A DNA stretch of 64,000 nt. Origin: an uncultured Ignavibacteria bacterium. Lineage in GTDB: Bacteria; Zixibacteria; MSB-5A5; JAABVY01. A model generated the notes under the pieces. That model was not told the DNA's origin, made no database searches, and saw only the letters and a list, made by a program, of their open reading frames with translations. Location: positions 37,179 through 101,178 of the forward strand of contig CAZBZV010000002.1 of assembly GCA_964496505.1 (NCBI GenBank), in the 5' to 3' direction. A program made the position numbers and the translations under genes. Positions 3,299 to 32,018 of this stretch are shown here, piece after piece (positions within the stretch are counted from its first letter, which is position 1; every line of letters starts with the position of its first letter).

Positions 3299-4795
3299 AT
3301 GAAATTCGACTCTCAGATTACAAAGCTTTCCAAAATAAAAACCGACTGCCTTGCGCTTCCGGTTTTTGAGTCTGCTCCCAAAGATAATCCGCATCTGAAG
3401 GATTTTCCCAAAGCTGTCTCCGACCAGGTTGCAGCCTTATTTAGAAGCGAGGTCGTAAACGGCAAAGAGGGGAATGGCTATCTTCTCAAAGTGGACGGCA
3501 AACATGGTTTCGAATATTTATATATTCAGGGTGTAGGCAAAAAAGGTGATCTTAATCACGACACAATACGGAAATTCGGGGGGAATCTAGCCTCGGGCTT
3601 AAAGGGAATGAAGTTCAAAAATGCCGCGGTATATATTCCCAAATCATTGAAGATCGGCAGTGACCTTTCCGTTATTTCTCAGATGGCCGTAGAGGGGATG
3701 CTTCTCGGATCATACGAGCTGTTGAAATACAAGTCCAAACCAAATCAAAAAGCACTGCCGGCAAAAGTTAGTTTCGTTCTGCCGGAAAGCTGGGACAAGC
3801 GCAGTTTCAATGCCGGGCTCGAGGTCGGCGAAATCATGGCCTGGGGACAGAATCTTTCACGCGACCTGATTGGCCATCCCTCGAATTATCTTACGCCTAT
3901 CGAGCTGGCAAAAACCGCCAAATCAATGGCGCGTAAATTCGGTTTTAAGTGCGAGGTTTTGACAAAAACCCAGATCCAGCGCCTGAAGATGAACTGTGTG
4001 CTGGCAGTCAATGCCGGTTCGAAAGAACCGCCCCAGTTTATTATCATGAAATATAAGGGACCGCGTTCGAAAAAGAATCCGGTATGCCTGGTGGGGAAGG
4101 GGATCACATTCGACTCCGGTGGAATATCGCTCAAGAAAGCGCAAGATATGGATCAGATGAAGGGTGATATGGGCGGCGCCGCATGCGTGCTGGCATCAGT
4201 AACGGTGGCGGCTCGCCTGAAGCTTCCCATTAATCTGGTCGGGCTTATCCCGGCAACCGATAATCTGCCCTCAGGTTCGGCTTACAAGCCGGGAGATATC
4301 CTGACTGCCATGAACGGCAAGACAATCGAGGTTTTGAATACGGATGCTGAAGGGCGCCTGATTCTTGCTGATGCGCTCTCCTATGCGCAGCGATTGAAGC
4401 CGGAAGCGATTATCGATGTGGCTACCCTCACGGGAGCGTCAATAGTTGCGCTGGGTTATGTCAGTTCAGCTTTATTCACCAATGATAATAAGCTGCGCAG
4501 GCTGCTCAATCGCGGTTCGGAAAAATCCAGCGAGAAAACCTGGGAGCTTCCCTTGTGGAAGGAATATCAGGAGCAGATCAAATCGTCGATTGCCGATATT
4601 AAAAATACCGGCGGGCGTCCCGCAGGCTCATGCACAGCCGCAGCATTTCTGAATAATTTTACCGGCAAGTATCCCTGGGCGCATCTGGATATCGCCGCGG
4701 TTGATATCGTCTTTAACGGCGGCGCTTATACTCCTAAAGGGCCAAGCGGCTACGGCGTCAGGCTGGTAAGCGAATTTTTGCGAGAATGGAAATAA
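3299..4795 (+). CDS. pepA: Leucyl aminopeptidase (M17 family)
   Basis: The NTDAEGRLILADAL signature of M17 peptidases is present. The length, 498 aa, is also consistent. Confidence 0.85.
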   Translation: MKFDSQITKLSKIKTDCLALPVFESAPKDNPHLKDFPKAVSDQVAALFRSEVVNGKEGNGYLLKVDGKHGFEYLYIQGVGKKGDLNHDTIRKFGGNLASGLKGMKFKNAAVYIPKSLKIGSDLSVISQMAVEGMLLGSYELLKYKSKPNQKALPAKVSFVLPESWDKRSFNAGLEVGEIMAWGQNLSRDLIGHPSNYLTPIELAKTAKSMARKFGFKCEVLTKTQIQRLKMNCVLAVNAGSKEPPQFIIMKYKGPRSKKNPVCLVGKGITFDSGGISLKKAQDMDQMKGDMGGAACVLASVTVAARLKLPINLVGLIPATDNLPSGSAYKPGDILTAMNGKTIEVLNTDAEGRLILADALSYAQRLKPEAIIDVATLTGASIVALGYVSSALFTNDNKLRRLLNRGSEKSSEKTWELPLWKEYQEQIKSSIADIKNTGGRPAGSCTAAAFLNNFTGKYPWAHLDIAAVDIVFNGGAYTPKGPSGYGVRLVSEFLREWK

Positions 4796-4804
4796 AGAAG
4801 ACCG

Positions 4805-4838
4805 AAAAAAACCGCCCTCTTTCAAGGGCGGTTTTTTT
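4805..4838. terminator. Rho-independent terminator, bidirectional, sitting between convergent genes
   Basis: An A-run is followed by the hairpin CCGCCCT-ctttca-AGGGCGG and then a T-run. Confidence 0.6.
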
Positions 4839-4858
4839 ATATCCGTATGAATTTGTGT

Positions 4859-5848
4859 TTATTTCGTCCAGGCCGGATTGGAATCATTCCCCGGTCCGGA
4901 AATACGTTTCATATCTGTGCCATCAAGATTAATGGTATATATTGCGCCGTTGGAGGTGCCGAAAGCGACTTTGCTTCCGTCGGGCGCCCAGCTCGGCATA
5001 CCCGAGACCCAGAGGCCCTCCTCCGGCTGGCAGATCAATCTTTCTCCGCTTAGATCGGCATTGGCAACATATACCCCATCATCCTTAAGAAACAGGATCT
5101 TGGTACCATCGGGCGACCAGTCCGGCGAACTTCCTCCGGGATTGTTTTCGGCAGTCTCGATCAGTACTTCGCCGGTGGGCATCTCGCCTTCCAGGGGCAG
5201 TACGATCATACCCAGCTTCTGCATGCCGGTTTTCTTCAATTCCCCCAGCACGAAACAAACCTTACTGCCATCGGGAGAGATCGAAGGCATCAACGGGAAT
5301 AGCTGCCGGTCGGTTCTGGGCAGCTCCATATGGCTGAATGTTTCCGTGTCGGTATCATAAAAGCCGATTGAATATTCCGGCAGGGTGGCATCCACGATAT
5401 TGCCCATTCTGTCGTATGTGAAGCTGATCGTTTTCCCGTCATCTGACCAATCGGGAGATTTCGAGCCGAGCGTATTCGTAACCCCCATCCAGAAATTCTT
5501 GCGCTGGGGAAGGCTGTCAGTAAAGGCGTAGAACAGATCATACAAAAAGTGATAGCCGCCGCCGCCCTCGGGATATTTGATTTCCACTTTTCCCTGCCGG
5601 CTGAATGCCAGACGTTTATTGTCCGGCGCCCAGGACATGCGTCCGGTGGCATTGGCGATTCCCACCACAAAGGGGCGCTGATTGGAACCGTCGGGATTCA
5701 TAAGCCAGACGTCGCCATTACGAATAAAGGCGATCTGCTCCCCCATTGAATCTGTCTGAGTCCCCTGCGCCGAGGCTGTTTCGGTTACGTAAATGCTTGT
5801 CATTAAACTAAATAGAAAAAGCAAAGTAAATAAACTGAATCTCTTCAT
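4859..5848 (-). CDS. TolB-like periplasmic beta-propeller protein with a signal peptide
   Basis: Repeated PDGS, SPDWSPDG and SWAPDG motifs are characteristic of WD40-like TolB propeller blades. The signal peptide reads MKRFSLFTLLFLFSLMTSIYVTETASA. The start was chosen at the internal Met because a signal peptide follows it. Confidence 0.6.
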   Translation of the reverse strand: MKRFSLFTLLFLFSLMTSIYVTETASAQGTQTDSMGEQIAFIRNGDVWLMNPDGSNQRPFVVGIANATGRMSWAPDNKRLAFSRQGKVEIKYPEGGGGYHFLYDLFYAFTDSLPQRKNFWMGVTNTLGSKSPDWSDDGKTISFTYDRMGNIVDATLPEYSIGFYDTDTETFSHMELPRTDRQLFPLMPSISPDGSKVCFVLGELKKTGMQKLGMIVLPLEGEMPTGEVLIETAENNPGGSSPDWSPDGTKILFLKDDGVYVANADLSGERLICQPEEGLWVSGMPSWAPDGSKVAFGTSNGAIYTINLDGTDMKRISGPGNDSNPAWTK

Positions 5849-5966
5849 TTGCAGTCCTTTCGTTTCCCGTTTATACACGCAATTCGGCTCGCCGTTGCGG
5901 AATTTTTGGACTATAATAGATATTTCAAATTCTGTCAAATTTTATTTGCATTAGCATATCTAAATC

Positions 5967-5996
5967 AAAAGGCAGCCGATATGACTGCCTTTTTTA
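5967..5996 (-). terminator. Terminator downstream of the PFOR gene
   Basis: The hairpin GGCAG-ccgatatga-CTGCC is flanked by an A-run and a T-run. Confidence 0.45.
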
Positions 5997-6020
5997 TTAT
6001 CGGAAATATGTTCGATTGCC

Positions 6021-9000
6021 TTACTTGCTTCCGTTTCCATCCATACTGTAATCCATCTCAGCCATCTGTCTGTAGATATTCCATCTTCGATTGGCATCCT
6101 GCTGAGCGAGCTTCATCAACATAGCCGCTCTTTCCGGATCAGAGACCTTCAGAGTTCGCCATCTGTTCTCGCCGTAAGCATATTCCTCATACGGGATCGA
6201 AGGCTCTTTGGAATCGAGCTGGAGAGGGTTCTTGCCCTGGTCCATCAGAGCCGGGTTGTAACGGTAAAGCATCCAGTGTCCCGATTTAACCGCTTTATCC
6301 ATTTCAGAAAGACCGTTGATCATATTGATACCGTGTGCGATGCAGTTGGCGTAAGCGATTATTATCGACGGACCGGGATAGGATTCGGCCTCCATGAAGG
6401 CTCTGACTGTCTGGTTATGACTGGCGCCCATCGCTACCTGAGCAATGTAAACATTTCCATACGCCATCAGCATCATTCCCAGATCTTTCTTGGCGCTGGG
6501 GCGTCCTGCAGCTGCAAACTGAGCAGTAGCTCCTCGCGGGGTAGCCTTGGACATCTGACCGCCAGTATTTGAATAAACTTCAGTATCCAGCACGAGGATA
6601 TTTATGTCCCGTCCGGAAGCCATAACATGATCCAGGCCGCCGTAGCCTATATCATAAGCCCAGCCGTCACCGCCGACAGCCCATACCGACTTCTTGACCA
6701 GATAATCTGCGATTGAGTCGAGAATCATAGCATCCTCGGTGTCCATGCCCTGAAGTTTCTTTCTCAGCGCTCCGATACGCTCACGCTGTTTATCGATTGC
6801 AACCGGATCGCTCTGGTCCGCATTGGCAATTTCGTCATACATATCAGGTACGACTTTCTGCAAAAGCTCTCTGGCAAATTCGGACATTTTATCGGCGTTT
6901 AAGCGCATACCGAATGCGAACTCGGCATTATCCTCGAAAAGCGAATTTGACCAGGTCGGGCCCCTGCCGTCATCACGCTTGGTATACGGAGTTGTCGGCA
7001 GGTTGCCGCCATATATCGATGAGCATCCGGTAGCGTTGCCGATCAATGCCCGGTCACCGAACAACTGCGAGAGCAGTTTGACGTATGGTGTTTCACCGCA
7101 GCCTGAACATGCTCCCGAGAACTCGAATAGCGGTCTGACAAACTGACTGCCCTTGACCGTCTTGATCTTATAGGTCGAGGGATCAGTCTCCGGCAGCTTC
7201 AGGAAGAAGTCCCAGTTTTCGGCTTCCTGCTTGCGCAGGGGCGCCTGGAGGGACATGTTGATCGCTTTCTTGTCGGTTTTCTTGCCATCGATCTTCTCGT
7301 AGGCGGGGCAGACCTGCACGCACAGCTCGCATCCGGTACAATCCTCCGGTGCAATCTGAAGCGAGTAAACCTCGCCGTTCTTATAACCTTTGGCCTTGGC
7401 CGACTTAAATGTCTCCGGTGCATCCTCAAGATGCTTGGGATCGTAAACCTTTGGCCGGATAGTGCCGTGAGGACAGACAATCGCACAGATATTACATTGT
7501 ATGCAGATATCCGGCTCCCAGACAGGAATGTCGACAGCGATATTGCGTTTCTCGTACTGAGTGGTTCCGGTCATATAGGCGCCGTCGAACGGGAAGGCCG
7601 AGACCGGGAGCTCATGGCCCTTGCCCCGGATGATTTCCGCCGTAACATTCTGCACGAACTCAGGCGCATATTCCGGCACCGTCGGAGGCATGCTGATTTC
7701 GCTGGTAACCTCTTTCGGATAATCGACCTTGTGATAGTTCTTCAGAGCGGCGTCGACAGCGTCATAATTCATCTGCACGACCTTCTCGCCCTTACGGCCG
7801 TATGTCTTTTGAATTGCATCCTTAATAGCCTTAATCGCCTCATCCTTCGGAAGAATCTCGGTGATCGCGAAGAAAGCGGTCTGCATTATCATATTGATCC
7901 TGGCGCCCAGTCCAAGTTCTTTGGCCAGATCAATACCGTCTATAACATAGAAGTCCAGCTTCTTATCGATGATCTGCTGTTGTACTTCCTTAGGCATCTT
8001 GTCCCAGACGTCGTCCGGACCGTACATGCTGTTCAGCAGGAATGTACCGCCCTCGATAATATGCTCGAGCATATTGATCTTTTCGAGGAATGTGAAGTTA
8101 TGACAGGCGATGAAATTCGCCTTGGTGATCAGGTAGGGACGCTGGATCTCATTGGGACCGAAGCGCACATGAGAAATTGTAATTGCCCCTGCTTTCTTTG
8201 AGTCGTAAACGAAATAACCCTGAGCGTAATAATCCGTATTTTCGCCAATGATCTTGATCGAGTTCTTGTTGGCGCCCACAGTACCGTCTGCACCCAAACC
8301 GTAAAACATACCGCGGAAAACATCCTCGCCCTCGATATCGAAATCGGGATCGAAGTCGAGGCTGGTATTGGTAACGTCATCTTTAATGCCGATTGTGAAG
8401 TGATCCCTGGGATCGTCTTCCTTCAGGTTGTCGAGCACTGCCTTAGCCATTCCCGGATTGAATTCGGCCGAACCGAGACCATAACGTCCGCCCACGATAA
8501 TCGGCCTCTCGTCGAATTTACTCCAGCCCTTATGCATTGCCTCAACGACTCCGGTCTGAATATCGGTGTAAAGCGGTTCGCCCACCGATCCGGCTTCCTT
8601 GGTTCTGTCCAGAACGGCGATCTTTTTGACCGTCGCGGGCAATGCCTCGGCCATAGCCTTGATCGAGAAGGGACGATAAAGACGTACTTTTATCAGACCG
8701 ACCTTTTCGCCCTGCTCATTGAGGTAGTTAACGGTCTCATGCATAGTCTCCGAGCCGGTACCCATCATGAATACTACCCGCTCGGCTTCGGGATGTCCGA
8801 AGTAATCGAATAATTTGTATTGCCGTCCGACTATCTTGGCGAATTTATCCATCTCTTCCTGAACTATATCAGGGGCGGCATCATAATATTTATTTACTGT
8901 CTCACGGGATGCGAAGAAGACATCGGGATTTTGAGAAGTGCCCTTCAAGACCGGATGCTCCGGATTCATGGCTCTATCCCGGTGTTTTTTGATATATTCG

Positions 9001-19756: not shown

Positions 19757-22700
19757 TTATCTGACAACCCAGTCGCCCATCGGCAGCGGACCGCCCATGA
19801 ACAGATAGTTGAACAGATAATCGACGTCTAACTGATCGATATTGCCATCTGCATTAACATCGCCCAGATACAGGAACGGATGCGGGTAGCAGCCGCAGCC
19901 TGCAACATAGCAGTTCAGCACGCAGAGGTCGAGGATGTTAACGACATTATCGTCGTTGACATCGCCTCGGCCAAAGCCTGCGAACTTGTTGGCGAAGTTC
20001 ATTACTTCCGCAATATCCGCGCCAGGAGCGGTAGCATCGTTAAATCCGAAGATCACGACACCGCCCTTGACGGTTTCGTCACCATCGACGAACTGCTTGC
20101 CGGCAGTCAGAATGCCTGACATATCCTGACCGGGGTTTACACCCACTTCGGTGCCAGGATAGTAGCAGTCTGTATACGGCGGGCAGTCGTCAATATAGTT
20201 GAAGAATGAGTCGGTGATAAAGCCGTCATAGACCACAGGATCGTTCGCAACAGCAAAGGTTCCATAGGCGCCCATAGTGGGATCGCCGCCCACATACAGG
20301 TTGCCTTCAAGCGGAACCGAACCGCAGCCGTACTGATATTCAGGAGCGGTGTTGTCGAACATTCTGTAGGCTGAGAGACCGTCACCGATCAAACCAACCT
20401 GCACGTTAGCGAGATAATCCGGACCGGCATCCCAGTCAGTGAAGGTACCCCAGTACAGATCGGCCGGAATCGGATCGGAACCACGGTTCTGAATTTCAAC
20501 ATAGATATACTTGAAGTTGTTGAAGAGAACATCATGGCCGCCGTACTCCTTGACGAACATTTCCATGCCGATGGTGGCGGCAGGATCAAAGTTACCGCCG
20601 GCATCCTTCAGCGAGTCAATCCAGGAAGCGCTGAAGCGATCACCGGTGATTGTCCTGTCGAGACCGGTGGCATTGTAAATGTCAGCCGAGAAAGTATCGA
20701 AGGTACAGACGCTGTTGGGCTCGAATCCGTTAATGCCGGTGACTTCATCCAGCCAGGCAATATGATCATCTTCATAACCATAGAACCATGAATGGTGATA
20801 GCAGAAGTTCTCGATGCCGTCGATAGCGAAGGCATCGGCGGGACCGGCATCCGACATCCAGCCGTCGTTGTTGACATAGGATGTGTTCTGGAGAGCATCA
20901 CCGAAGTCGATATAGCCGTCACAGAATGCAAAACCCTTTACGGCCACGACTGTAACCGAGGCCTGGGGTTCGGCATGCGGATAAGGCGAATCGTCTTCAG
21001 GATTAAAGTCAGGATCGTCTGAATCGATTGTAACTTCAAAGGCATTCGGTCCACGGGCCATCAGAGCAGGATCGAGTACGAATTCCTGGTTGTGGAGCAT
21101 GCCGGCACCCAGCACACCTGAGGTGGTGGTGGCGCCGCCCGGGAACCTGACAAAGTCGGCAGCTCTTGAAATGTTGCCGAGATCATTGTCTTTGCCTTCG
21201 AACTGGTCATTAAGCTGACGATTCTCGAGACCACGCAGATCGAACTGGCCGCTTTCGGAGACTTCGGCATACTTCGAAAGACCGTTGCCGGAAGCCATCA
21301 AGGCGCCGTCCTTCGCTGTCACGATTTCCATATCCCAGGTCAGCGGGGCGCTGCCGGTATTGGCAAAGACATCGCCGAATCTGGAGATAGGATAGGCATC
21401 GATAAACGAAACAGCGTCAAGATTAACGACAGGATCGGGAATATGCAGACGCGGACGATCGGCGCCGACCTTGAAGCAGAACACCTTACCAAAGGTGTTG
21501 CCATAATTGGAGTCGAAGGTGGCCACGATCACATAATCTTCATCAGCATATTCGGCCACGGCCGTACCCAGAACACCGCCACTGAAGCGGTATTTCAGGA
21601 GAACATTACCGGTCATGGCTTCCATGATTCTCCAGGTACCCTCGTTCCAGATATAACCCGTAAACAGATACGGGTCACAGGTGGAGGCAAAGGAGTTGCT
21701 GGAGATCGCCCATCTGTCACCCACGTGGTTCGGGAAATCACCGAACCATACGAACGAGCCGTTCGATGTGAACTGCTTGGTCGGGCTGAGGGTGGCATTG
21801 CCAACCGAGTACGGACCCCAGGCAGCACCGGTGGGTGTTGCCGCGCCGCCGACCGTGACTCTATTCCACGGAGTGGGCATATAGTTGGGGGTGACGTACC
21901 AGGGAGCCTGGATCAGATTCCAGCTTCCCCACAGCGGTGTAAAGTCTGCCGCTGCCAGCTTAATCAACGAGCCCTGGTTCTGGCCAATCATGGCCGGAAG
22001 AGTACCGGCTACATAAACAGCATCTTCTTCAGCATCATAAACCGGGGCAACGTCGAAGTCCTCATTAGGATTGGCTCCTTCGATTCCGGCCCAGGTGTAA
22101 AGAGTCGCACCTGTGGCGGGATTGATTTTGTAAACTGTACCGCCAGGACCGGAACCGGCACTGGAAGTACCCACAAACAGATCAGTTCCGTCTGTGGTGG
22201 GTGAGAATACCACACCCTGATCGAGCGTCACATTCCAGACATCAGCGCCGGTCAATTTGTTCAGACCATATAATTCACCGAAGCTTGTTCCGAAATAAAC
22301 ATTGTCGCCCAGAATCACGGGGATGGTAAACGCCATTTCACCGACCAAACCGCCAACGCCGCCCGGCAGCGGGCTGCCCAGATCGGCATGACGCACCCAG
22401 ATGGTGTCGCCGGTAAATGCATCAGCACAAACAATACCTTCATTCAATGATGAACGTCCTGTACCGAAGTAGATTCTGCCGTCGTCAACAGTCGGAGTAG
22501 TAGTCAGGAAGTTATTCGCATTGCCCATAAATGTTGCATACTGGGGATTAAATCCGACCACAGGGTTACCTGTGCGCCAGACTACACCACCGGTATACAG
22601 ATCAAGAGCAACGATCTCATCGTAGAAGGCTATGTAGACTAATTCGTTAGCGATCACGGGATGGCCGTAGGCAATTACATAATCACCCTGCCACTCCCAG

Positions 22701-23554
22701 AGTTTTGCGAAGTTGGTCAGATCGCCGATGATATTGGTCGAGTAACCTGTTCTGCCAAAGTTCTGGCCATGTGTCGGCCATTCCTGATTAGCCGGACAGG
22801 TATACGCCGGAACCTCACAGCAGACCTCTGCAAAGAGCTGCCAGTTTAAGGCATCGCCCGCAGCCATGCTGAGATAGGCATGATATCCTGCAGGAGCAAA
22901 ATAGGCCAGACCTCTTCCAGTGGCTTCGCTTGTACAGCTTCCACCATTAGCAACCAGCAGATCTTCAGTCAAGCCGGCAACAAAATCCGTCCCATTATTC
23001 AGCTCCACCGATACGAAAACATCTTCGCCCTGCGGGAAGTTCACTCCGTTAGCGGGCCATCCCGGAAGGGCAGATGCAGTCATAATGTTCGGGAAATACT
23101 GGATATCAGCCTGGTCTACGGCCAGCTCAAAGATGATACCGCCGTCTACCGCGAATTCATCCGGGTAGTCATCAAAGGCGGGATCTTCCCGATATACCCT
23201 GATGGTTACACCCGAAGTAAGGCCGCCCAGATCATACAGATAGAACTGCACATCATTGACATAGCACTGTTCGGCAGTGGTTGGGCTGAAACGTACCATC
23301 ATATCCCAAACATTATCCGTTTGGTCTAAAGTGATTGTGTAGGCAGGACCGCTACAGGTGTAATCCTGGACAGCACAGTCGGTATCATTCGGGACCTTGT
23401 ACGGAGTAGGAGTTGCCGGATCAGTAAGAACAGCAGCAGTACCGGGATCCAGAAGGAAATCTTGTTTCACAGGAGGATTACCATTATCGGCTAATGCAAA
23501 GTTACCAACTACAAAACTCAAAGCAACTAATGCAATCAAGAGTTTTTTAATCAT
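19757..23554 (-). CDS. Large secreted protein with PQQ/BamB-like beta-propeller repeats and a dockerin-like module at the extreme C-terminus
   Basis: The signal peptide is MIKKLLIALVALSFVVGNFALA. Repeated GxxxW motifs such as GGVVWRTG, GDTIWVRH and GADVWNV mark the propeller. The C-terminus carries GDVNDDNVVNILDL...GDVNADGNIDQLDVDYL, which looks like two dockerin Ca-binding segments. The ribosome-binding site GGAGGAAGTAAATG lies at 23554-23567. Confidence 0.6.
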   Translation of the reverse strand: MIKKLLIALVALSFVVGNFALADNGNPPVKQDFLLDPGTAAVLTDPATPTPYKVPNDTDCAVQDYTCSGPAYTITLDQTDNVWDMMVRFSPTTAEQCYVNDVQFYLYDLGGLTSGVTIRVYREDPAFDDYPDEFAVDGGIIFELAVDQADIQYFPNIMTASALPGWPANGVNFPQGEDVFVSVELNNGTDFVAGLTEDLLVANGGSCTSEATGRGLAYFAPAGYHAYLSMAAGDALNWQLFAEVCCEVPAYTCPANQEWPTHGQNFGRTGYSTNIIGDLTNFAKLWEWQGDYVIAYGHPVIANELVYIAFYDEIVALDLYTGGVVWRTGNPVVGFNPQYATFMGNANNFLTTTPTVDDGRIYFGTGRSSLNEGIVCADAFTGDTIWVRHADLGSPLPGGVGGLVGEMAFTIPVILGDNVYFGTSFGELYGLNKLTGADVWNVTLDQGVVFSPTTDGTDLFVGTSSAGSGPGGTVYKINPATGATLYTWAGIEGANPNEDFDVAPVYDAEEDAVYVAGTLPAMIGQNQGSLIKLAAADFTPLWGSWNLIQAPWYVTPNYMPTPWNRVTVGGAATPTGAAWGPYSVGNATLSPTKQFTSNGSFVWFGDFPNHVGDRWAISSNSFASTCDPYLFTGYIWNEGTWRIMEAMTGNVLLKYRFSGGVLGTAVAEYADEDYVIVATFDSNYGNTFGKVFCFKVGADRPRLHIPDPVVNLDAVSFIDAYPISRFGDVFANTGSAPLTWDMEIVTAKDGALMASGNGLSKYAEVSESGQFDLRGLENRQLNDQFEGKDNDLGNISRAADFVRFPGGATTTSGVLGAGMLHNQEFVLDPALMARGPNAFEVTIDSDDPDFNPEDDSPYPHAEPQASVTVVAVKGFAFCDGYIDFGDALQNTSYVNNDGWMSDAGPADAFAIDGIENFCYHHSWFYGYEDDHIAWLDEVTGINGFEPNSVCTFDTFSADIYNATGLDRTITGDRFSASWIDSLKDAGGNFDPAATIGMEMFVKEYGGHDVLFNNFKYIYVEIQNRGSDPIPADLYWGTFTDWDAGPDYLANVQVGLIGDGLSAYRMFDNTAPEYQYGCGSVPLEGNLYVGGDPTMGAYGTFAVANDPVVYDGFITDSFFNYIDDCPPYTDCYYPGTEVGVNPGQDMSGILTAGKQFVDGDETVKGGVVIFGFNDATAPGADIAEVMNFANKFAGFGRGDVNDDNVVNILDLCVLNCYVAGCGCYPHPFLYLGDVNADGNIDQLDVDYLFNYLFMGGPLPMGDWVVR

Positions 23555-24202
23555 TTACTTCCTCCTTAAAGACTTAGGAATATAGATTGTGTGTTAACCA
23601 TAAACCTTGTCGGTTTGCAAATCGAGAATAAATCATCAGCTGCATTAGGACCGATATCCAGTCCCGATTTGTGGGGGCCAATTCTTAATTCTTGTCTAGG
23701 GAATTTGAATCGGCACTCCGGGTTAACAACTTTACTTCCTAAATTACGGAGTCGGGATAGGCTGCAGAGTTCACACTCTTCAGATTTTCCCAATTTGGTT
23801 CAGAATTCAAAGCTTTTCTGCGATTCTTTTACCATCTCAAATCCTCAGATAATTCCTCCTTAAAGGATTAATAATAGACTAATTACACATTACAGCTAAG
23901 TAGTTATGATAAAAGAAATTGAGGTAAAGAAAAGAAGGTAAGATATAATTGTACCCACTTACCCGATTCTGTTTTTTGGGTGCGTCAGTAACAATTGTAT
24001 CAAAAAAGAAGAGTAACTGTAAGTTTTCTCGGCATAAACTCAAGCCATTAAATCTATACCGATTTCTCAAGCCGCACTCATGTTAATAGATTTTATTTTT
24101 TTGTCAAGATAAAATAATGACCTTTTTCCAAAATATTCAGTAAAATCAGGGCTTCCCGGACATTTTTGTTCAAAACCTGCACAAAAACGGCCATTATGTG
24201 CG

Positions 24203-24840
24203 CTGTCAGGAATCCTTTCCTGACAGTTATTGGTAGGGCAGAATCCGTAGCGAAGCAGAGCGATTCTGCCTATCCTATGGTTTGCCGTAAATGGAAGATA
24301 GGCAGAACCGCTAAAGGGTTCTGCCCTACATTCTCCCGATTTAAGGGATGTCCGCCCCTCATGGGTGGGATAAATCGCGTCAGGGTGCCCCAATCTTCAG
24401 ATTGGGAACGGCATATCGGATGAAAGAACCCAGGCTAAAGCCTGGGGCACCCCGGTCATAATACATTGCATTGCAACGGTTTGTTGGTAGGGCAGAATCC
24501 GCAGCGAAGCGGAGTGATTCTGCCTATTCTATGGTTTGCCGTAAATGGAAGATAGGCAGAACCGCTAAAGGGTTCTGCCCTACATTCTCCCGATTTAAGG
24601 GATGTCCGCCCCTCATGGGTGGGATAAATCGCGTCAGGGTGCCCCAATCTTCAGATTGGGAACGGCATATCGGATGAAAGAACCCAGGCTAAAGCCTGGG
24701 GCACCCCGGTCATAATACATTGCATTGCAACGGTTTGTTGGTAGGGCAGAATCCGCAGCGAAGCGGAGCGATTCTGCCCTATCCTATGGTTTGCCATGAA
24801 CCGGGGGATAGGCAGAACCGCTAAAGGGTTCTGCCCTACA
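24203..24840. repeat. Non-coding tandem array of 254-bp structured repeats, with two full units and a truncated, diverged third
   Basis: Units begin at 24230, 24484 and 24738. Copies 1 and 2 are nearly identical. The period, 254 bp, is not a multiple of 3. Nested GGCAGAA/TTCTGCC inverted repeats and several additional hairpins are visible directly in the sequence. Confidence 0.85.
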
Positions 24841-24954
24841 AGAAACCTACCCAACTTATAATACTGCAATGAATTATCTCAGATCGATTCCTGCCGCCGC
24901 CGTAAAAAACATTAAATCATTGCAAAAATAATCCATCTAAATATATTATCTGCC

Positions 24955-27345
24955 ATGATTATCAGGCATCTGAATATCAGAAACTTCCGCAAATACGCCG
25001 AACTCGATCTGGATTTTCCCGACGGCGTGATCGGGGTGGTGGGACGCAACGGTTCCGGCAAATCGACCCTTCTGGAGGTTTTTGCCTGGATGCTCTACGG
25101 CTCCAACGGTTTGAAAACGAAGAACATACAGATATATCCCGATTTTGCCCAGGATAAGGGTCAAACCGAAGGTGAACTCGATTTTATGATCGGCGCCCAG
25201 AATTTCCGCATAAGGCGCGGCTTCAAAAAGCCAAATAAAAGCACCGCAGAACTTTACGCCGAGGATAATATCCTTGCTACAGGCACAAAAGAGGTCAATC
25301 GGGAAGTGGAAAAGCTCTCGGGCATGGACTGGAAAGCATTTCAGACCTCGTTCTACACCCGTCAAAATGAACTGAATCTTCTCGGAAGCCTCCAGCCGGC
25401 CGAAAGAAGCAAACGCCTGGAGGAGATGCTGGGCCTCGAAAAGACAAATATTATTATTAATAATATAAAGGGCGACCTGCGTTCCTTGACAGGGGAGATC
25501 AAGGGCTTAGAGCAGCTTATTGAACGTGAGGAGGAATACAAGCTCCTGCACCATAAAAAGCTGCAGGAAAAGGAATCTACCTCCAAAACAGTCAATGAGT
25601 TGGAAGAAAATCTTAAGTCGCTGGATGAGGCCTTAAAGAAGCTTAAGGCCTCCTTTGCACAAAGCGAAAAGAAGCGTGAGGAGTTTCAAAAAGTCTCCTC
25701 TCGGCTTGAGCTTTTAAAGCATGATCTGAAAAAAAACGAGAGCGATAAGGATAAGACCGAGGCAAAAATTACCGCAATCGAGGCCCAAAAGGAACGCTTC
25801 GAGAATTTGAAAAAGGAGCTGAAGGCTCTTCCCGATGTCAGGGAAAATCTCAATCTGCTTGAAAAACAACAGCTTAAGTTCGAAAGTAAGACCCAGAAAG
25901 AGACGCAGCTTAGCCATCTCGAAAAATCCCTGGAAGCTCAGCTTGAAAAGGGCACAGCCTTAAGCAAGTCAATTGAGGAGTTTAAAAGCAAGGCCGGGGA
26001 CGTATCTATTATTATTAATAATATCAAGGAAATCGCCAAAAACACGGAAGGTTTGCAGGAGGAAGTCGCCTCATTCAGGGAGGAAAAGGCCGGGATAGCC
26101 TCCCAGCTTAATAAGCTCAAGGGACAGATGGATGATATCGAAAAGCTTGGCGACGAAGCGGTTTGCAGTTTCTGCCTGCGGCCGTTTAAAGGCGAGATGC
26201 ATGATATCGAGAAGCATTTCAAGGATGAAATCGATAAGTTGGAATCATCATGGAAAGCAGCTTCCGAAAAGCTGGATTCAAAGCAAGCCGAGCTGAAGAA
26301 GATACAGTTGGAAAGAAAGAGCCTTGAGGAGAAGCGCGATAAGGCTCAGAAAATTCAAAAGGAGCTTTCCAGTTCCGAGGGGGAGAGAAAGAATTTGCGC
26401 GAAAATTACAAGCAGGGCCTGAACCAGCAAAAAGTCCTGGAGGATGAGCTTAAAGCTCTGGGAGATACAGAGTTTGATCCAAAGATATACAGCAAAACCA
26501 AGGCGCGATTTGAGGATCTCCAGAAGAAAAACAACGAATATGCGGGCCTGAGGGAACGTATGGCCGGTCTCGACAGCCTCAAAAAAGAGCGCGAAGAACT
26601 GCTTGAGAAGAATGCTATTATTAATGATAATATTAGGAAAATCGGGCAGGAACTACAGATAATCGGTTTCGACTCAGAAGTGTATCAGAATGAAAAGGAG
26701 ACGCTTGATAGGAAAACCGATGAGCGCGAGGAGGCACGGGATAAGCTTTCGAAGGCTCGTGAGACGCTGGCCGGTCTTAATGCCGAGATCAAGGGCTATG
26801 AAAATCAGTTAAAGAATATTGAGGAGGCCAAAAGCCGAACCTCGGAGATATCAACCGAAAAATTCTATCTGGAAAGCCTGATCGAGCTTCTGGCGGAGCT
26901 GAAAACCGAACTTGCCGCGCGCATACGTCCTTTACTGATACAGATTTCCTCAAATCTTCTGGATCGTATGTCCGACGGCAAGTTCAGCGAACTGGATTTG
27001 AATAAAGATTACGAGATATCGGTCAGGGATTACGGCGAGCTTCAGGAGCTGAACCGTTTTTCAGGCGGGGAGCAGGATCTGGCCAATCTCAGCCTGCGTC
27101 TGGCGATATCAAAGCTTCTGGCTCAGTCCTCGCGTCTGGAGGCCGGATTTTTGATCTTGGACGAAGTCTTCGGCAGCCAGGACAGCTTCAGAAAAGAGAA
27201 TATTATGGGCGCGATTGCGGGATTACAGGATTTTTTCCAGCAAATCTTTATCGTAACGCATGTTGAGGATGTAAAAGAGGCGGTGCAGACGCTTCTGACG
27301 GTTGAGGAGAACCGTGACGGGTCCAGCTCGGTCATTGTAGATTAA
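24955..27345 (+). CDS. sbcC: SbcC/Rad50-like SMC-type ATPase carrying a zinc hook. No sbcD is present in the window.
   Basis: The Walker A motif is GRNGSGKST. A long coiled-coil is interrupted by a CSFC (CxxC) hook. The C-terminus has the ABC signature FSGGEQDLANL, a Walker B motif FLILDEVFGSQD and an H-loop VTHV. Confidence 0.7.
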   Translation: MIIRHLNIRNFRKYAELDLDFPDGVIGVVGRNGSGKSTLLEVFAWMLYGSNGLKTKNIQIYPDFAQDKGQTEGELDFMIGAQNFRIRRGFKKPNKSTAELYAEDNILATGTKEVNREVEKLSGMDWKAFQTSFYTRQNELNLLGSLQPAERSKRLEEMLGLEKTNIIINNIKGDLRSLTGEIKGLEQLIEREEEYKLLHHKKLQEKESTSKTVNELEENLKSLDEALKKLKASFAQSEKKREEFQKVSSRLELLKHDLKKNESDKDKTEAKITAIEAQKERFENLKKELKALPDVRENLNLLEKQQLKFESKTQKETQLSHLEKSLEAQLEKGTALSKSIEEFKSKAGDVSIIINNIKEIAKNTEGLQEEVASFREEKAGIASQLNKLKGQMDDIEKLGDEAVCSFCLRPFKGEMHDIEKHFKDEIDKLESSWKAASEKLDSKQAELKKIQLERKSLEEKRDKAQKIQKELSSSEGERKNLRENYKQGLNQQKVLEDELKALGDTEFDPKIYSKTKARFEDLQKKNNEYAGLRERMAGLDSLKKEREELLEKNAIINDNIRKIGQELQIIGFDSEVYQNEKETLDRKTDEREEARDKLSKARETLAGLNAEIKGYENQLKNIEEAKSRTSEISTEKFYLESLIELLAELKTELAARIRPLLIQISSNLLDRMSDGKFSELDLNKDYEISVRDYGELQELNRFSGGEQDLANLSLRLAISKLLAQSSRLEAGFLILDEVFGSQDSFRKENIMGAIAGLQDFFQQIFIVTHVEDVKEAVQTLLTVEENRDGSSSVIVD

Positions 27346-27364
27346 TCTTATTATTAATAATAAT

Positions 27365-28033
27365 ATGGCTAAACGAAAAACAAAAACATCCCGCCAGCTT
27401 CTCAGACTGGCACTTCTGATCCTGATTCTGACCTCGATCTATTTCCTGTTTCACGAGGTCTGGCAGGAGGAACCATCAGAGCCGCGTTTGACCGGCTTGA
27501 GAGCGGTTGAGATTATTGACGGGGACACGTTTGATGATTCCGAGGGAGAGACGATCCGTCTTCTGGGGATTGATACCCCGGAGGCCGGGGAAGCTTTTTA
27601 TTCAGCATCGACACGGGCATTAGACAGCCTGCTTGCCGGAAAGGTAATTCGCTACGAATTCGATTCACGCAAACGCGACCGCTATGAGCGGCTTTTGGCG
27701 TATGTTTTTACCAGTCATGATTTTGTAAATAAATCTCTGGTTGAGCAGGGGCTGGCCTCAGTCTATATTTTTCCGAAAGACATGAAAAATGAACATTACC
27801 GCTCAGTTCTGATTGAAGCCCAGAACAGCGCCCGTGACCTGCGGCTGGGGATATGGTCGCTTGGGCCGCCCCCGCCCGAGAGCTTTTATGTCGGCAATCA
27901 GAACAGCTTCAGGTTCCACCGGCCTACATGCTTTTCGATAGAGCGCCTGAACGACAGCGCGAAGATCATTCTGCCGAGCAGGGGTGATTTTTTCGATCTG
28001 GGCTATTCGCCCTGCAGAAACTGCAATCCCTGA
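27365..28033 (+). CDS. Membrane-anchored staphylococcal-nuclease-like (SNase, thermonuclease) protein with a C-terminal Ada-type zinc-finger-like tail
   Basis: The N-terminal hydrophobic helix LLRLALLILILTSIYFLF suggests a membrane anchor. The SNase motif is IDGDTF...RLLGIDTPE. The C-terminus FHRPTC...GYSPCRNCNP resembles the Ada zinc-binding consensus (CRPSC...RPCKRCRP). Confidence 0.7.
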   Translation: MAKRKTKTSRQLLRLALLILILTSIYFLFHEVWQEEPSEPRLTGLRAVEIIDGDTFDDSEGETIRLLGIDTPEAGEAFYSASTRALDSLLAGKVIRYEFDSRKRDRYERLLAYVFTSHDFVNKSLVEQGLASVYIFPKDMKNEHYRSVLIEAQNSARDLRLGIWSLGPPPPESFYVGNQNSFRFHRPTCFSIERLNDSAKIILPSRGDFFDLGYSPCRNCNP

Positions 28034-28036
28034 GGA

Positions 28037-28537
28037 TTACTCCTCCACTTTTAAATCGAATCTGATATCCTTATCGGTCTTCTCCATCACCGCCAGCACG
28101 AACGGCTGGGTCAGCACCTGCAGAACCGGTTTGCCTTCCTCTGGTCCCTCATTGACGGTCAAAGCAACAATCTGTTCCTCGCCTTCGACATAAACCGAGT
28201 CGAGCCTGACCCAGTAGCCGGTTGTGGGCTGTTCGCCCAGAAAAACACCGATTACTATTTCCTCGTCAAAATCGATATCCGGAGGCATGGTCTTTGCGTC
28301 AAGATACGAGTAATGCTCCTGCCAGATAGAATCAAATTCCTCCTCGGACTCGATAATCAAATCCATCGGCTCTGTAATCCCGGATTGGGCGCCGCTGGAA
28401 AGAAGCTCGTAATAAACTAATCCGGACTGGCTTGTATCTTCCTGTTTTGCTGTCTCTTCGGCATTGGAATCACCGCCCTGGCAGGCGAATAAAAACAGGG
28501 CAATTATAAGTATCGGTACTAAAACTCTATGCATCAA
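28037..28537 (-). CDS. Lipoprotein of unknown function
   Basis: The signal peptide plus lipobox reads LFLFAC|QGG. The protein is 166 aa. Confidence 0.45.
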   Translation of the reverse strand: MMHRVLVPILIIALFLFACQGGDSNAEETAKQEDTSQSGLVYYELLSSGAQSGITEPMDLIIESEEEFDSIWQEHYSYLDAKTMPPDIDFDEEIVIGVFLGEQPTTGYWVRLDSVYVEGEEQIVALTVNEGPEEGKPVLQVLTQPFVLAVMEKTDKDIRFDLKVEE

Positions 28538-30299: not shown

Positions 30300-32018
30300 T
30301 TACCCCGCATCATAACCCGGTGGCGCCGGTGCGCCCGGAATGAATATGAAGTTTATCAGGAATACCGCATCAGATACGTTAACCTCGCCGTCATCATTGG
30401 CATCTCCCGCCTCCATTACCGGCTGTGGAGGATCGCCGTCAATAAAGACATGGTTAATTATGTATACAGCATCCGAGATATTGAAAATGCCGTCAAAGTT
30501 GGCATCACCCTGCAGATAATCCGGTACATACATATAATTCACAGCCGCCATGACATCGATTATCCCCCATCCGTAAGCGTTATCGGGGCTGATTGCCTGC
30601 GAGGCGGTAAGCTTTAAAGCCTCGCGAACCTCCATGACATTAAAGTCTGGTCTCGCTTCCATTACAAGAGCCGCAGCTCCCGCAACCAGGGGGCAGGCCA
30701 GCGAGGTACCGCTGGCGCTGGTAATATATGTATTCGTATACGGGCTGGCGCAGACAGTGGAGGAACCGCGGGCGCAAACCTCCGGTTTAATCCTGCCGTC
30801 ATAAGTCGGGCCTTTGGAGGAAAAATAGCTTAAATATCCGCTGCTTTCAACCGAGCCAACGGCTATAACGCTGTCACCATCCGCGGGTGCGGTTATTGTG
30901 GCCGCTGAAGGTCCGCCGTTTCCGGCAGAATTGCAAACCAGGATTCCTACCGAGGCAGCATAATCAGCGGCATTGGTAATCACACAGGTGTTTCCATCAA
31001 GATCCTCGTAAGTATACCAATCTGAATAGCCTAAAGAGGAGGATATTATATTCACGCCGATTGAATCGGTCCACTGTACAGCAGCCGCCCAGTTATCTTC
31101 TTCGACCGGAGTCTCCGAGGTCATATCCTCGGTTTTTGCCAAAACAAACGTTGCACCGTAAGCCGGACCATAAATTTCGCCATCCCATCCGCCACCAAGG
31201 GTGGACCAGGTCTTGGTACCATGATCCCACTGATTAGAAACATCGCCTTCTTCATTAGCGGTTTCATAATCATTATTTATAAAATCGTATTCGGCAATTA
31301 AACGGCCGTCGGAGATAATATCGCCAAATGCCAGATGGTCTTTTCTGTAACCGGTGTCGAACATGGCTACGATTATGCCCTCTCCGCTGAATCCGGAATC
31401 ATGGGCGGCTATAACATTAATCTGGTCGAGCTGGCTGTATGTACCGCCGTAGGAGAGCTCATGGGTACCCCGCTTTTGATCCGGAACTTCATTTAACTCA
31501 TCGAGTTCCTGCGATTCCGGAGAGGCGGGACGAGTGAATTCGGCCACCGGCCGTATTTTCAGCACAAAGGGGAGATCTTTTATCTGCTCAAGTGTCTCCA
31601 GATCAGTCTCGAAACTGGCCGCATTCAGCCATTTAATCACGCGTCTGAGCTTTAAGCCATAACTTTCGATTTCATCCACATATTGCTGATTAACCGGGAG
31701 ATCCTCGAATCTGATTGCGGATGCATCGTTTCTGGCGCGGCGCTCTCGTGTTTCCGGAGTCATGGAATTGTATATCAGATCAGCCTTTTCAATAAAATCA
31801 TCAGCCTTGAATATTCCTTTATCTGTAAAATATACCCAGATCTTAACTGCTTGGCCATCCGCCTTTTCCGATAGATAGCTGTATGACTTATCTGAGATTA
31901 CAACATCGGGTTTTTCCTTTACTAATTTATCGGGGATAATATATTCCGCTGCTGAGGAATTGCCTGTTAAAGATAATGAGAATAGAATAGCAATGCTAAT
32001 TATAAGTAGTCTTTTCAT
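30300..32018 (-). CDS. Secreted subtilisin-like (S8) serine protease with a C-terminal dockerin-like module
   Basis: A signal peptide is present. The catalytic motifs are MFDTGY (Asp), DHGTKT (His) and GTSLACP (Ser). The C-terminus carries GDANFDGIFNISDAVYIINHVF...GDANDDGEVNVSDAVFLINFIF, a duplicated Ca-binding dockerin pattern. Confidence 0.8.
   Translation of the reverse strand: MKRLLIISIAILFSLSLTGNSSAAEYIIPDKLVKEKPDVVISDKSYSYLSEKADGQAVKIWVYFTDKGIFKADDFIEKADLIYNSMTPETRERRARNDASAIRFEDLPVNQQYVDEIESYGLKLRRVIKWLNAASFETDLETLEQIKDLPFVLKIRPVAEFTRPASPESQELDELNEVPDQKRGTHELSYGGTYSQLDQINVIAAHDSGFSGEGIIVAMFDTGYRKDHLAFGDIISDGRLIAEYDFINNDYETANEEGDVSNQWDHGTKTWSTLGGGWDGEIYGPAYGATFVLAKTEDMTSETPVEEDNWAAAVQWTDSIGVNIISSSLGYSDWYTYEDLDGNTCVITNAADYAASVGILVCNSAGNGGPSAATITAPADGDSVIAVGSVESSGYLSYFSSKGPTYDGRIKPEVCARGSSTVCASPYTNTYITSASGTSLACPLVAGAAALVMEARPDFNVMEVREALKLTASQAISPDNAYGWGIIDVMAAVNYMYVPDYLQGDANFDGIFNISDAVYIINHVFIDGDPPQPVMEAGDANDDGEVNVSDAVFLINFIFIPGAPAPPGYDAG

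Follow-up and report, generated by a model that had tools for sequence, protein, structure and literature searches.

An SbcC/Rad50-family ATPase gene adjacent to a gene for a predicted membrane-anchored nuclease in one clade of Zixibacteria

Rad50/SbcC family membership of the ATPase

The ATPases of the SbcCD and Mre11-Rad50 systems, such as E. coli SbcC and the Rad50 proteins of archaea and Thermotoga, have a split ABC head that bears the full set of catalytic motifs, together with one long antiparallel coiled coil whose apex is a CxxC zinc hook. In the anti-phage systems Lamassu (LmuB and LmuA) and Septu (PtuA and the HNH protein PtuB), a gene for an ATPase is followed by a gene for a nuclease. 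S. aureus thermonuclease (Nuc) and other exported staphylococcal nucleases (SNases) combine the SNase fold signature and all Ca2+-binding and catalytic residues with an N-terminal export signal. The locus described here resembles each of these in part. In the 64-kb stretch of DNA that was analysed (the window), a gene for an sbcC/rad50-family ATPase (24955..27345, forward strand, 796 aa) is followed by a gene for a predicted membrane-anchored SNase homologue (27365..28033, forward strand, 222 aa). The reading favoured here, to which a probability of roughly 0.6 is assigned, is that an ordinary SbcC orthologue lies beside an exported nuclease and that their adjacency probably reflects chance in gene order.

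A preliminary description of this DNA had reported a complete Rad50-like ATPase, and all of the motifs that it named were located: Walker A GRNGSGKS (aa 30-37, nt 25042-25065), the zinc hook C404-S-F-C407 (CSFC, nt 26164-26175), the signature motif SGGE (aa 703-706, nt 27061-27072), Walker B FLILDE (aa 732-737, nt 27148-27165) and the H-loop H769 (nt 27259-27261). The head also contains a D-loop and the Q-loop Q137. The head residues GRNGSGKS, Q137, SGGE, FLILDE and H769 were invariant in 13 homologues, and the hook residues C404, C407, R409 and P410 were likewise unchanged across 13 homologues. In the AF2 model (pLDDT 81.5), one long coiled coil extends from a split ABC head; its antiparallel helices (aa 162-398 and 415-672) are joined by a sole loop, the apex at aa 399-414, which bears the CxxC motif.

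Rad50/SbcC was the best match of the ATPase by sequence, by HMM profile and by fold. The profile search of the PDB returned Rad50 (6e-37), E. coli SbcC (5e-18), SMC (1e-9) and PtuA (2e-5), the top Foldseek match of the model was Rad50 (6e-26), and the SbcC-like phage family PHROG 77 aligned over the full length (1e-59). The top NCBIfam matches were also Rad50/SbcC, with 175 bits, which is far below the curated cut-off of 700 bits. The agreement of the sequence, profile, fold and phage-family searches identifies the ATPase as a member of the Rad50/SbcC family. It differs from E. coli SbcC in being shorter (796 versus 1048 aa), and from the SbcCD and Mre11-Rad50 systems in having no adjacent sbcD/mre11 gene and in carrying three clade-specific IINN(N)IK motifs in the coiled coil, which are conserved within its divergent branch. 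By exhaustive HMMER searching this branch is small, with three clusters at 45-52% identity, and the surrounding family comprises more than 140 clusters of proteins ~800 aa long, with full-length alignments at 26-33%.

The nuclease and its predicted location

The preliminary description had placed a same-strand SNase-like gene about 20 bp downstream of the ATPase gene; the nuclease gene begins 19 nt past the ATPase stop codon, and its product matches the Pfam SNase family (PF00565, E=1e-19, 71.4 bits with the curated cut-off at 21) with a domain at aa 47-165 (nt 27503-27859). Residues D54, R65, D70, T71, E73 and R109 align with the Ca2+ ligands and catalytic residues of S. aureus nuclease (D21, R35, D40, T41, E43 and R87). 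By these motifs the nuclease is catalytically intact.

The N-terminus contains six K/R and no D/E residues in aa 1-14, followed by a hydrophobic helix, the putative signal anchor (aa 12-31, nt 27398-27457), and then by an acidic flank, and this layout is kept in 5/5 nuclease orthologues. Because the anchor strongly obeys the positive-inside rule, the protein is placed outside the cytoplasm, and by these sequence rules it is most likely exported. A helix at aa 7-32 was also modelled by AF2 with a pLDDT of ~90, in a single-sequence model whose overall pLDDT was 41. No AXA-type cleavage site was found in the signal, which looks like an uncleaved anchor. Signal-like N-terminal segments were present in all 16 of the distant, non-clade SNase homologues recovered from metagenomes, and none of these 16 had an SbcC-like gene beside it.

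The window nuclease differs from S. aureus Nuc and the exported SNases in its apparently uncleaved anchor and in an additional C-terminal His/Cys3 motif (aa 184-222, nt 27914-28030) similar to the N-Ada zinc domain. The Ada N-terminal domain (PF02805) matched this C-terminus with 13.8 bits against a Pfam cut-off of 23, and the four best PDB matches of the nuclease orthologue profile were all N-Ada, although weak (E 0.07-0.17). Compared with the Ada zinc site (C38, C42, C69, C72), the position of Cys38 is occupied by His in the window nuclease, and the third Cys is missing from the orthologue in L003. The module is absent from 16/16 non-clade SNase homologues. Ada-type Cys/His zinc modules are better known in cytoplasmic proteins, which counts against the predicted export.

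Gene order, sbcD and explanations for the gene pair

The gap between sbcC and the nuclease gene is 9-23 nt in every orthologue, and no terminator-like site is located between the two genes in the window; the arrangement is thus operon-like, and the genes are probably co-transcribed. The pair is kept down to 47% ATPase identity, and was found in one clade of Zixibacteria only, in which the ~25 kb around it, made up of housekeeping and envelope genes, keep the same gene order, so that conservation of the pair says little by itself. The preliminary description had named conservation in relatives as a check on the pair: the pair is indeed kept there with short gaps, but within a single syntenic clade, where it is inseparable from the ~25 kb of conserved gene order. 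Among the SNase homologues recovered from metagenomes, no independent recurrence of an ATPase-SNase pair was found outside this clade. The neighbourhood includes housekeeping genes and genes for exported or envelope proteins, namely a PQQ-repeat/dockerin protein, a PrcB-like protein, a dockerin subtilase, a pilin, PilMNO and a secretin, and no mobile or defence genes were found near the pair in the window or in the relatives.

No Metallophos, Mre11 or SbcD gene or remnant was detected in the 64-kb window by phmmer, tblastn, a motif scan, or an Mre11 HMM that was built from four sequences and run on all six-frame ORFs, and no Metallophos/SbcD gene was found within +/-10 kb of the pair in five related genomes (L001-L006; L001/L002 are from JGI 3300010393, L003 from GCA_964627935.1 and L006 from ERZ23486243). 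The earlier statement that no calcineurin-like phosphoesterase gene lies nearby therefore holds over both ranges. The 1.4-kb spacer upstream of sbcC contains no sbcD pseudogene. An SbcD/Metallophos gene is located directly upstream of the ATPase gene in 7/7 of the more distant homologues that are full-length and whose context is known (P0014, L007, L008, L009, L010, L011 and L015), of which L010, L011 and L015 were obtained from a contig scan with the ATPase alignment and a generic P-loop pattern that otherwise gave mainly unrelated ABC/SMC loci, none of them from Zixibacteria. The P0014 locus is partly syntenic with the window, as genes for a sigma-54 response regulator, an S8 peptidase and pilins follow in both, and the window ATPase is therefore probably the positional orthologue of that of P0014.

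A highly conserved family of 371-aa SbcD proteins is widespread in MAGs named Zixibacteria, with 58-100% identity to the SbcD query from L047 among the 120 matches listed. Its genes stand alone in 4/4 contexts, where the flanking +/-6 to 8 kb contain no SbcC-like ORF, and one of the four is in a 3.6-Mb record (CP070674.1, GCA_020351995.1), the longest contig examined. In this phylum, then, the sbcC and sbcD genes are often unlinked. The GC content of the four loci is 0.51-0.55, versus 0.40-0.50 in the clade with the SbcC-SNase pair, and their tetranucleotide correlation (r) to window segments is ~0.56-0.81, versus 0.84-0.96 among the window, L001, L003 and L006; they are thus assigned to other Zixibacteria lineages. 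By analogy with these lineages, sbcD in the window genome is most likely encoded at an unlinked site.

A search with an archaeal/Chlorobiota SbcD profile returned mainly Thermoplasmatota, and a literature search on unlinked sbcC/sbcD and on Zixibacteria nucleases found nothing relevant. P0175 and P0223 were considered as the SbcD source for a pair-bearing genome and rejected, as both come from other assemblies; P0223 is from a sibling sequencing run of L004, but its GC content and tetranucleotide profile indicate a different organism. An SNase-like gene beside the stand-alone sbcD of L047 was likewise discarded as a second link between SNase and SbcCD: it lacks the DTPE catalytic motif and has no counterpart at this position in L048 and L052, so that this adjacency is regarded as coincidence.

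Under the favoured explanation, the ATPase would be the Zixibacterial SbcC/Rad50 orthologue, dimerising via its zinc hook and its ATP-engaged heads and most likely pairing canonically with an SbcD/Mre11 encoded elsewhere in the genome, with which it would cleave hairpins and process DNA ends. The nuclease would be a Ca2+-type SNase that an uncleaved N-terminal signal anchor tethers to the inner membrane. Its catalytic domain would face the periplasm or exterior, as would a small Ada-like zinc module that binds DNA, and extracellular DNA would be degraded or processed there. Both genes would probably be co-transcribed while their products act in different compartments, and the adjacency would have arisen once, in one Zixibacteria clade, and have persisted because the whole region is collinear. 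The preliminary description had itself added the caveat that the nuclease might be extracytoplasmic and the adjacency coincidental, and this is now the best-supported reading, given the conserved signal anchor, the signal-like N-termini of the 16 homologues and the confinement of the pair to one collinear clade. Points against it are the divergence of the clade's ATPase, the short gap with no terminator, and the failure to find SbcD at the clade loci examined.

The same points are counted in favour of an alternative in which the clade lost sbcD and the SNase/Ada-zinc protein became the nuclease partner of the Rad50-like ATPase in a membrane-associated complex for repair or DNA processing. The absence of sbcD from the window and from +/-10 kb in the five relatives, the lack of any upstream remnant, the tight gaps retained to 47% identity, the clade-specific motifs, the assignment of the stand-alone sbcD loci to other lineages and the DNA binding suggested by the Ada-like module all fit such a replacement. 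However, the strong positive-inside pattern puts the nuclease on the other side of the membrane, every SNase homologue examined looks exported, and S. aureus-type Ca2+ sites normally function outside the cytoplasm; nor can retention of the pair, which has not recurred independently, be separated from that of the surrounding gene order. This alternative is therefore considered unlikely, and its specific form, in which an SNase tethered to the membrane, and equipped with an Ada-like zinc module for DNA binding, replaced a lost Mre11/SbcD in one Zixibacteria clade, somewhat less likely still. The atypical repair module envisaged in the preliminary description is thus weakened by the predicted export, the single syntenic clade and the stand-alone sbcD genes. 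An involvement in DNA uptake is comparably doubtful: the anchored, outward-facing nuclease and nearby type IV pilus and secretin genes would act on extracellular DNA for competence or nutrition, and SbcC, apparently made from the same transcript, would handle incoming or damaged DNA in the cytoplasm. The pilin, pilMNO and secretin genes lie 4-10 kb downstream of the pair and are syntenic in all relatives, but a convergent PrcB-like gene, a response-regulator gene and a protease gene intervene, the proposal takes its whole basis from proximity, and we know of no established role of SbcCD in transformation.

An anti-phage function, in which an SMC-like sensor ATPase of the LmuB or PtuA type would be coupled to a nuclease effector, had also been raised before and is very improbable. 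Partial PADLOC matches of the ATPase to mad3 (7e-26), LmuB (1e-21), AriA (5e-20) and PtuA (~1e-8) and a match of the SNase to a candidate SNc+LTD model (6e-16) speak for it. However, the LmuB and mad3 matches are limited to the C-terminal head and a portion of the coiled coil (LmuB, for example, aa 540-785) and the PtuA matches are confined to aa 1-51, all of them generic ATPase parts, and in PDB, NCBIfam, PHROGs and Foldseek searches Rad50/SbcC scores far better. Unlike Lamassu, the locus has no full-length LmuB match, the neighbouring gene is not LmuA and there is no LmuC; Septu combines a PtuA-type ATPase that has no long coiled coil with an HNH protein, whereas the window has a long coiled coil and an SNase, and no HNH partner. 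The supposed effector is predicted to lie outside the cytoplasm, and in every relative the locus belongs to a conserved core-genome block with housekeeping and envelope functions rather than to a defence island.

If the favoured reading is right, the locus offers caution only: an "orphan" SbcC beside a nuclease is no evidence of a new module, and conservation of a gene pair tells little where the whole region is collinear. If SbcD were truly lost and the SNase its replacement, the complex would be the first in which Rad50 works with a nuclease other than Mre11, a break in the otherwise universal Mre11-Rad50 pairing and of interest to the DNA-repair field.

Transcription signals and upstream repeats

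A promoter-like site, a candidate by its match to the consensus, is located at 24920..24949 on the forward strand (TTGCAA, a spacer of 16 or 18 nt, and TATATT/TATTAT) and ends 6-8 nt upstream of the sbcC ATG. A Shine-Dalgarno sequence is missing from both sbcC and the nuclease gene. Together with the closeness of the putative promoter to the ATG, this suggests that the pair may be expressed as a leaderless or short-leader bicistronic transcript. No Rfam match was found between 23000 and 29000. The structured repeat array that had been noted upstream of the ATPase gene is real, and consists of 2.4 copies of a 254-nt unit at 24227-24840.

An Rad50/SbcC-family ATPase without an adjacent sbcD

The gene at 24955-27345 (+) encodes a 796-aa protein in which every element of the complete Rad50-like ATPase claimed in the preliminary description was located, namely Walker A (GRNGSGKS, aa 30-37), the zinc-hook CxxC (CSFC, aa 404-407), the ABC signature (SGGE, aa 703-706), Walker B (FLILDE, aa 732-737) and the H-loop histidine (H769). 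C404, C407, R409 and P410 were invariant in 13 ATPase homologues. The AlphaFold2 model, computed with 13 homologues as input (mean pLDDT 81.5), displayed a split ABC head and a single long antiparallel coiled coil, whose sole non-helical apex (aa 399-414) was the CxxC hook.

The top NCBIfam matches were Rad50 and SbcC models, although at scores far under the equivalog cut-offs (175 vs 700 bits). The ATPase family profile matched Rad50 of M. jannaschii (6e-37), Rad50 of P. furiosus and T. maritima (~1e-25) and E. coli SbcC (5e-18), and matched SMC, RecF, PtuA and JetC weakly (1e-9 to 2e-4). The best Foldseek match was Rad50 of the C. thermophilum MRN complex (6e-26), and PHROG 77 ("SbcC-like subunit of palindrome specific endonuclease") aligned over the full length (1e-59). 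Every library consulted agrees that the ATPase is a member of the Rad50/SbcC family; it has the structural and motif features of this family and departs from it only in having no adjacent Mre11/SbcD. An exhaustive HMMER search showed that its close clade is small (3 clusters, 45-52% identity) and branches from a large family (>140 clusters) of ~800-aa proteins, whose full-length alignments have 26-33% identity.

An IINN(N)IK-like motif was observed in three copies in the coiled-coil arms, NIIINNIKGD (aa 167-171, window 25453-25467), IIINNIKE (aa 353-357, 26011-26025) and AIINDNIRK (aa 555-560, 26617-26634). The copies are kept throughout the Zixibacteria clade, and the second and third are missing from P0014, an SbcD-linked relative. 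The second copy adjoins a predicted coiled-coil break and the third shortly precedes one.

Location of sbcD

Searches by phmmer, by an HMM of four Mre11 sequences on six-frame ORFs, by tblastn and by motif scan found no Mre11/SbcD gene or remnant in the 64-kb window, bearing out the earlier statement that none lies nearby, and no sbcD pseudogene was found in the spacer upstream of sbcC. A Metallophos/SbcD gene was located immediately upstream, usually overlapping, in all seven full-length homologues outside the clade with known context (P0014, L007 and L009 from Thermoplasmatales, L008, L011 from Chlorobiota, L010 and L015). P0014 (797 aa) is 32% identical to the window ATPase and is followed by a sigma-54 response regulator, an S8 peptidase and pilins, matching the window order. 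Because the P0014 locus continues as the window does, the window gene appears to be orthologous by position to a canonical sbcDC operon minus its upstream sbcD.

A 371-aa Mre11/SbcD, found by chance in the Zixibacteria-like locus L047, was used as a query and retrieved a large, well-conserved family, with 58-100% identity among the matches listed (at least 120), many of which were named Zixibacteria or Zixiibacteriota. SbcD stood alone in four of four contexts, L047, L048 (on CP070674.1, a 3.6-Mb record and the longest of the contigs examined), L050 and L052; SbcC-like ORFs were absent from the 6 to 8 kb on either side of sbcD, for L052 also by HMM. Separate locations of sbcC and sbcD are therefore common in Zixibacteria, and an "orphan" SbcC is the expected appearance of the other locus under such an arrangement.

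The GC content of the stand-alone sbcD loci was 0.51-0.55, vs 0.40-0.50 for the Zixibacteria group carrying the ATPase-nuclease pair (the SbcC-SNase clade). Tetranucleotide correlations (r) of the four loci to window segments were ~0.56-0.81, and those among the window and its relatives L001, L003 and L006 were 0.84-0.96. These differing profiles show that the four loci belong to other lineages of Zixibacteria, outside the SbcC-SNase clade. We infer that an unlinked SbcD is encoded somewhere in the window genome.

In L047, the stand-alone sbcD (4567-5682, -) is divergent from the gene for a 426-aa exported SNase-like protein (5926-7206, +) without the DTPE catalytic motif. This second SNase/sbcD link is probably a coincidence, since the arrangement was not repeated in L048 or L052.

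The nuclease and its pairing with sbcC

The downstream same-strand SNase-family gene described earlier was confirmed as a 222-aa ORF (27365-28033, +; Pfam SNase, E=1e-19), separated from the ATPase gene by an AT-rich gap of 19 nt in which no terminator-like site was found. The protein retains D54, R65, D70, T71, E73 and R109, which correspond to the Ca2+-binding and catalytic positions of S. aureus nuclease; a Ca2+ site of this type is typical of extracytoplasmic nucleases. Its N-terminus, MAKRKTKTSRQLLR, contains six K/R and no D/E, after which come LALLILILTSIYFLF and an acidic stretch. This arrangement is that of a signal anchor whose N-terminus is inside and whose remainder is outside; no AXA-type cleavage site was visible in this segment. 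The layout was kept in five of five orthologues, in which the sequence of the same stretch is otherwise poorly conserved, and a single-sequence AlphaFold2 run gave a helix at residues 7-32 (pLDDT ~90; the rest of the model was unusable). A signal-like hydrophobic segment also begins each of 16 non-clade homologues recovered from metagenomes, none of which had an SbcC-like neighbour gene. Layout, orthologues, helix, homologues and the type of Ca2+ site all back predicted export, the extracytoplasmic possibility raised in the preliminary description.

The nuclease conforms to the regular SNase family apart from an unusual tail, the C-terminal 40 residues (FHRPTC...SPCRNCNP). The four best PDB matches of the orthologue profile were all N-Ada, at weak E-values (0.07-0.17), and the tail aligns with Ada C38 (where it carries His), C42, C69 and C72; its Pfam score was 13.8 bits vs a cut-off of 23. 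This weak match suggests a resemblance to the N-Ada zinc site and a putative accessory DNA-binding module. The Cys-rich nature of the zinc site argues mildly for a cytoplasmic nuclease, too little to override the topology signal.

The host belongs to the candidate division Zixibacteria, a name borne by the close ATPase homologues P0002 (90% identical) and P0003 (75%). The ATPase-then-SNase pair was present in every close relative recovered, L001, L002 and L030 (ATPase identity 75%), L003 and L004 (49%), L005 (51%), L006 (47%) and the low-quality contig L031, with intergenic gaps of 9-23 nt in those with gene calls (L002, L003, L005 and L006). The whole region was collinear in all of them, in the order thioredoxin-reductase-like gene, lipoyl synthase, PadR, RR-GAF-HD regulator, M50 peptidase (-), 1265-aa PQQ-repeat/dockerin protein (-), a 0.7-1.4-kb spacer, ATPase, SNase, PrcB-like (-), sigma-54 response regulator, S8 peptidase/dockerin (-), GspH-like pilin, PilM/N/O and secretin. 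Conservation of the pair, proposed earlier as a test, was found but is of little diagnostic value, being inseparable from that of all surrounding genes.

We favor, with a probability of about 0.6, a mechanism in which the ATPase would be the SbcC of the cell, processing hairpins and DNA ends with an SbcD encoded at an unlinked site, while the nuclease would be a membrane-anchored, outward-facing DNase with extracellular or periplasmic DNA as its substrate; the two genes would share a transcript and their products would form no complex. It is unlikely that the SNase replaced SbcD as the partner of the ATPase, even though the gene spacing is tight and conserved, the ATPase is divergent with clade-specific motifs, and the SbcD of the clade genomes is a predicted one; an association of Rad50 with a nuclease other than Mre11 is likewise improbable. 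A joint function of the pair in taking up and processing DNA, under co-regulation with the type IV pilus genes nearby, is also unlikely.

The Lamassu- or Septu-like defence pair suggested earlier is very improbable. PADLOC matches to mad3, LmuB, AriA and PtuA are limited to the head halves or a portion of the coiled coil, those to PtuA being confined to ATPase aa 1-51, and the window pair has the composition of neither a Lamassu nor a Septu system. Furthermore, the collinear block consists of housekeeping and envelope genes and is not a defence island.

Neighbouring genes and upstream non-coding sequences

Shine-Dalgarno sequences are missing in front of both sbcC and the nuclease gene (window 24920-24957 and 27346-27364), whereas the neighbouring PQQ/dockerin gene has a perfect AAGGAGG. 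Only 6-8 nt separate the end of a promoter-like -10 element from the sbcC ATG, a spacing that hints at a leaderless mRNA.

Dockerin type I domains were observed on the PQQ-repeat protein (19757-23554, -) and the S8 subtilase (30300-32018, -), near whose gene lies a PrcB-like gene (28037-28537, -), a homologue of a dentilisin-complex subunit. These genes are kept together across the clade, which suggests a possible cell-surface protease/adhesin assembly in Zixibacteria.

The structured repeat array reported to precede the ATPase is real (24227-24840; a 254-nt unit in 2.4 tandem copies, 98% identical) and shows strong folding for either strand (z = -5.2 and -6.3), but it is not part of the sbcC locus. 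It had no further copy in the window and no Rfam match, and because it is missing from the equivalent spacer of L001, L003, L005 and L006, it is a recent insertion between a conserved leader/promoter and sbcC.

The conserved non-coding block (~550 nt; 23555-24110, -) is located upstream of the 1265-aa PQQ-repeat/dockerin gene, and its counterparts (L001 9059-9691, L003 9307-9872, L005 172-705 and L006 7322-7824) share 67-88% nucleotide identity across relatives whose proteins share 47-75%. Neither a conserved ORF nor an Rfam match was found in it. An invariant TTGACA-16-TAACAT site at 24107-24080 (-) suggests that the block is a 5' leader of ~520 nt. RNAalifold identified hairpins with compensatory changes and an invariant long-range helix in which CUCC/AUUUAGGAA is paired with the Shine-Dalgarno region, and the block could be a previously unrecognised, SD-sequestering regulatory leader of the PQQ/dockerin gene.
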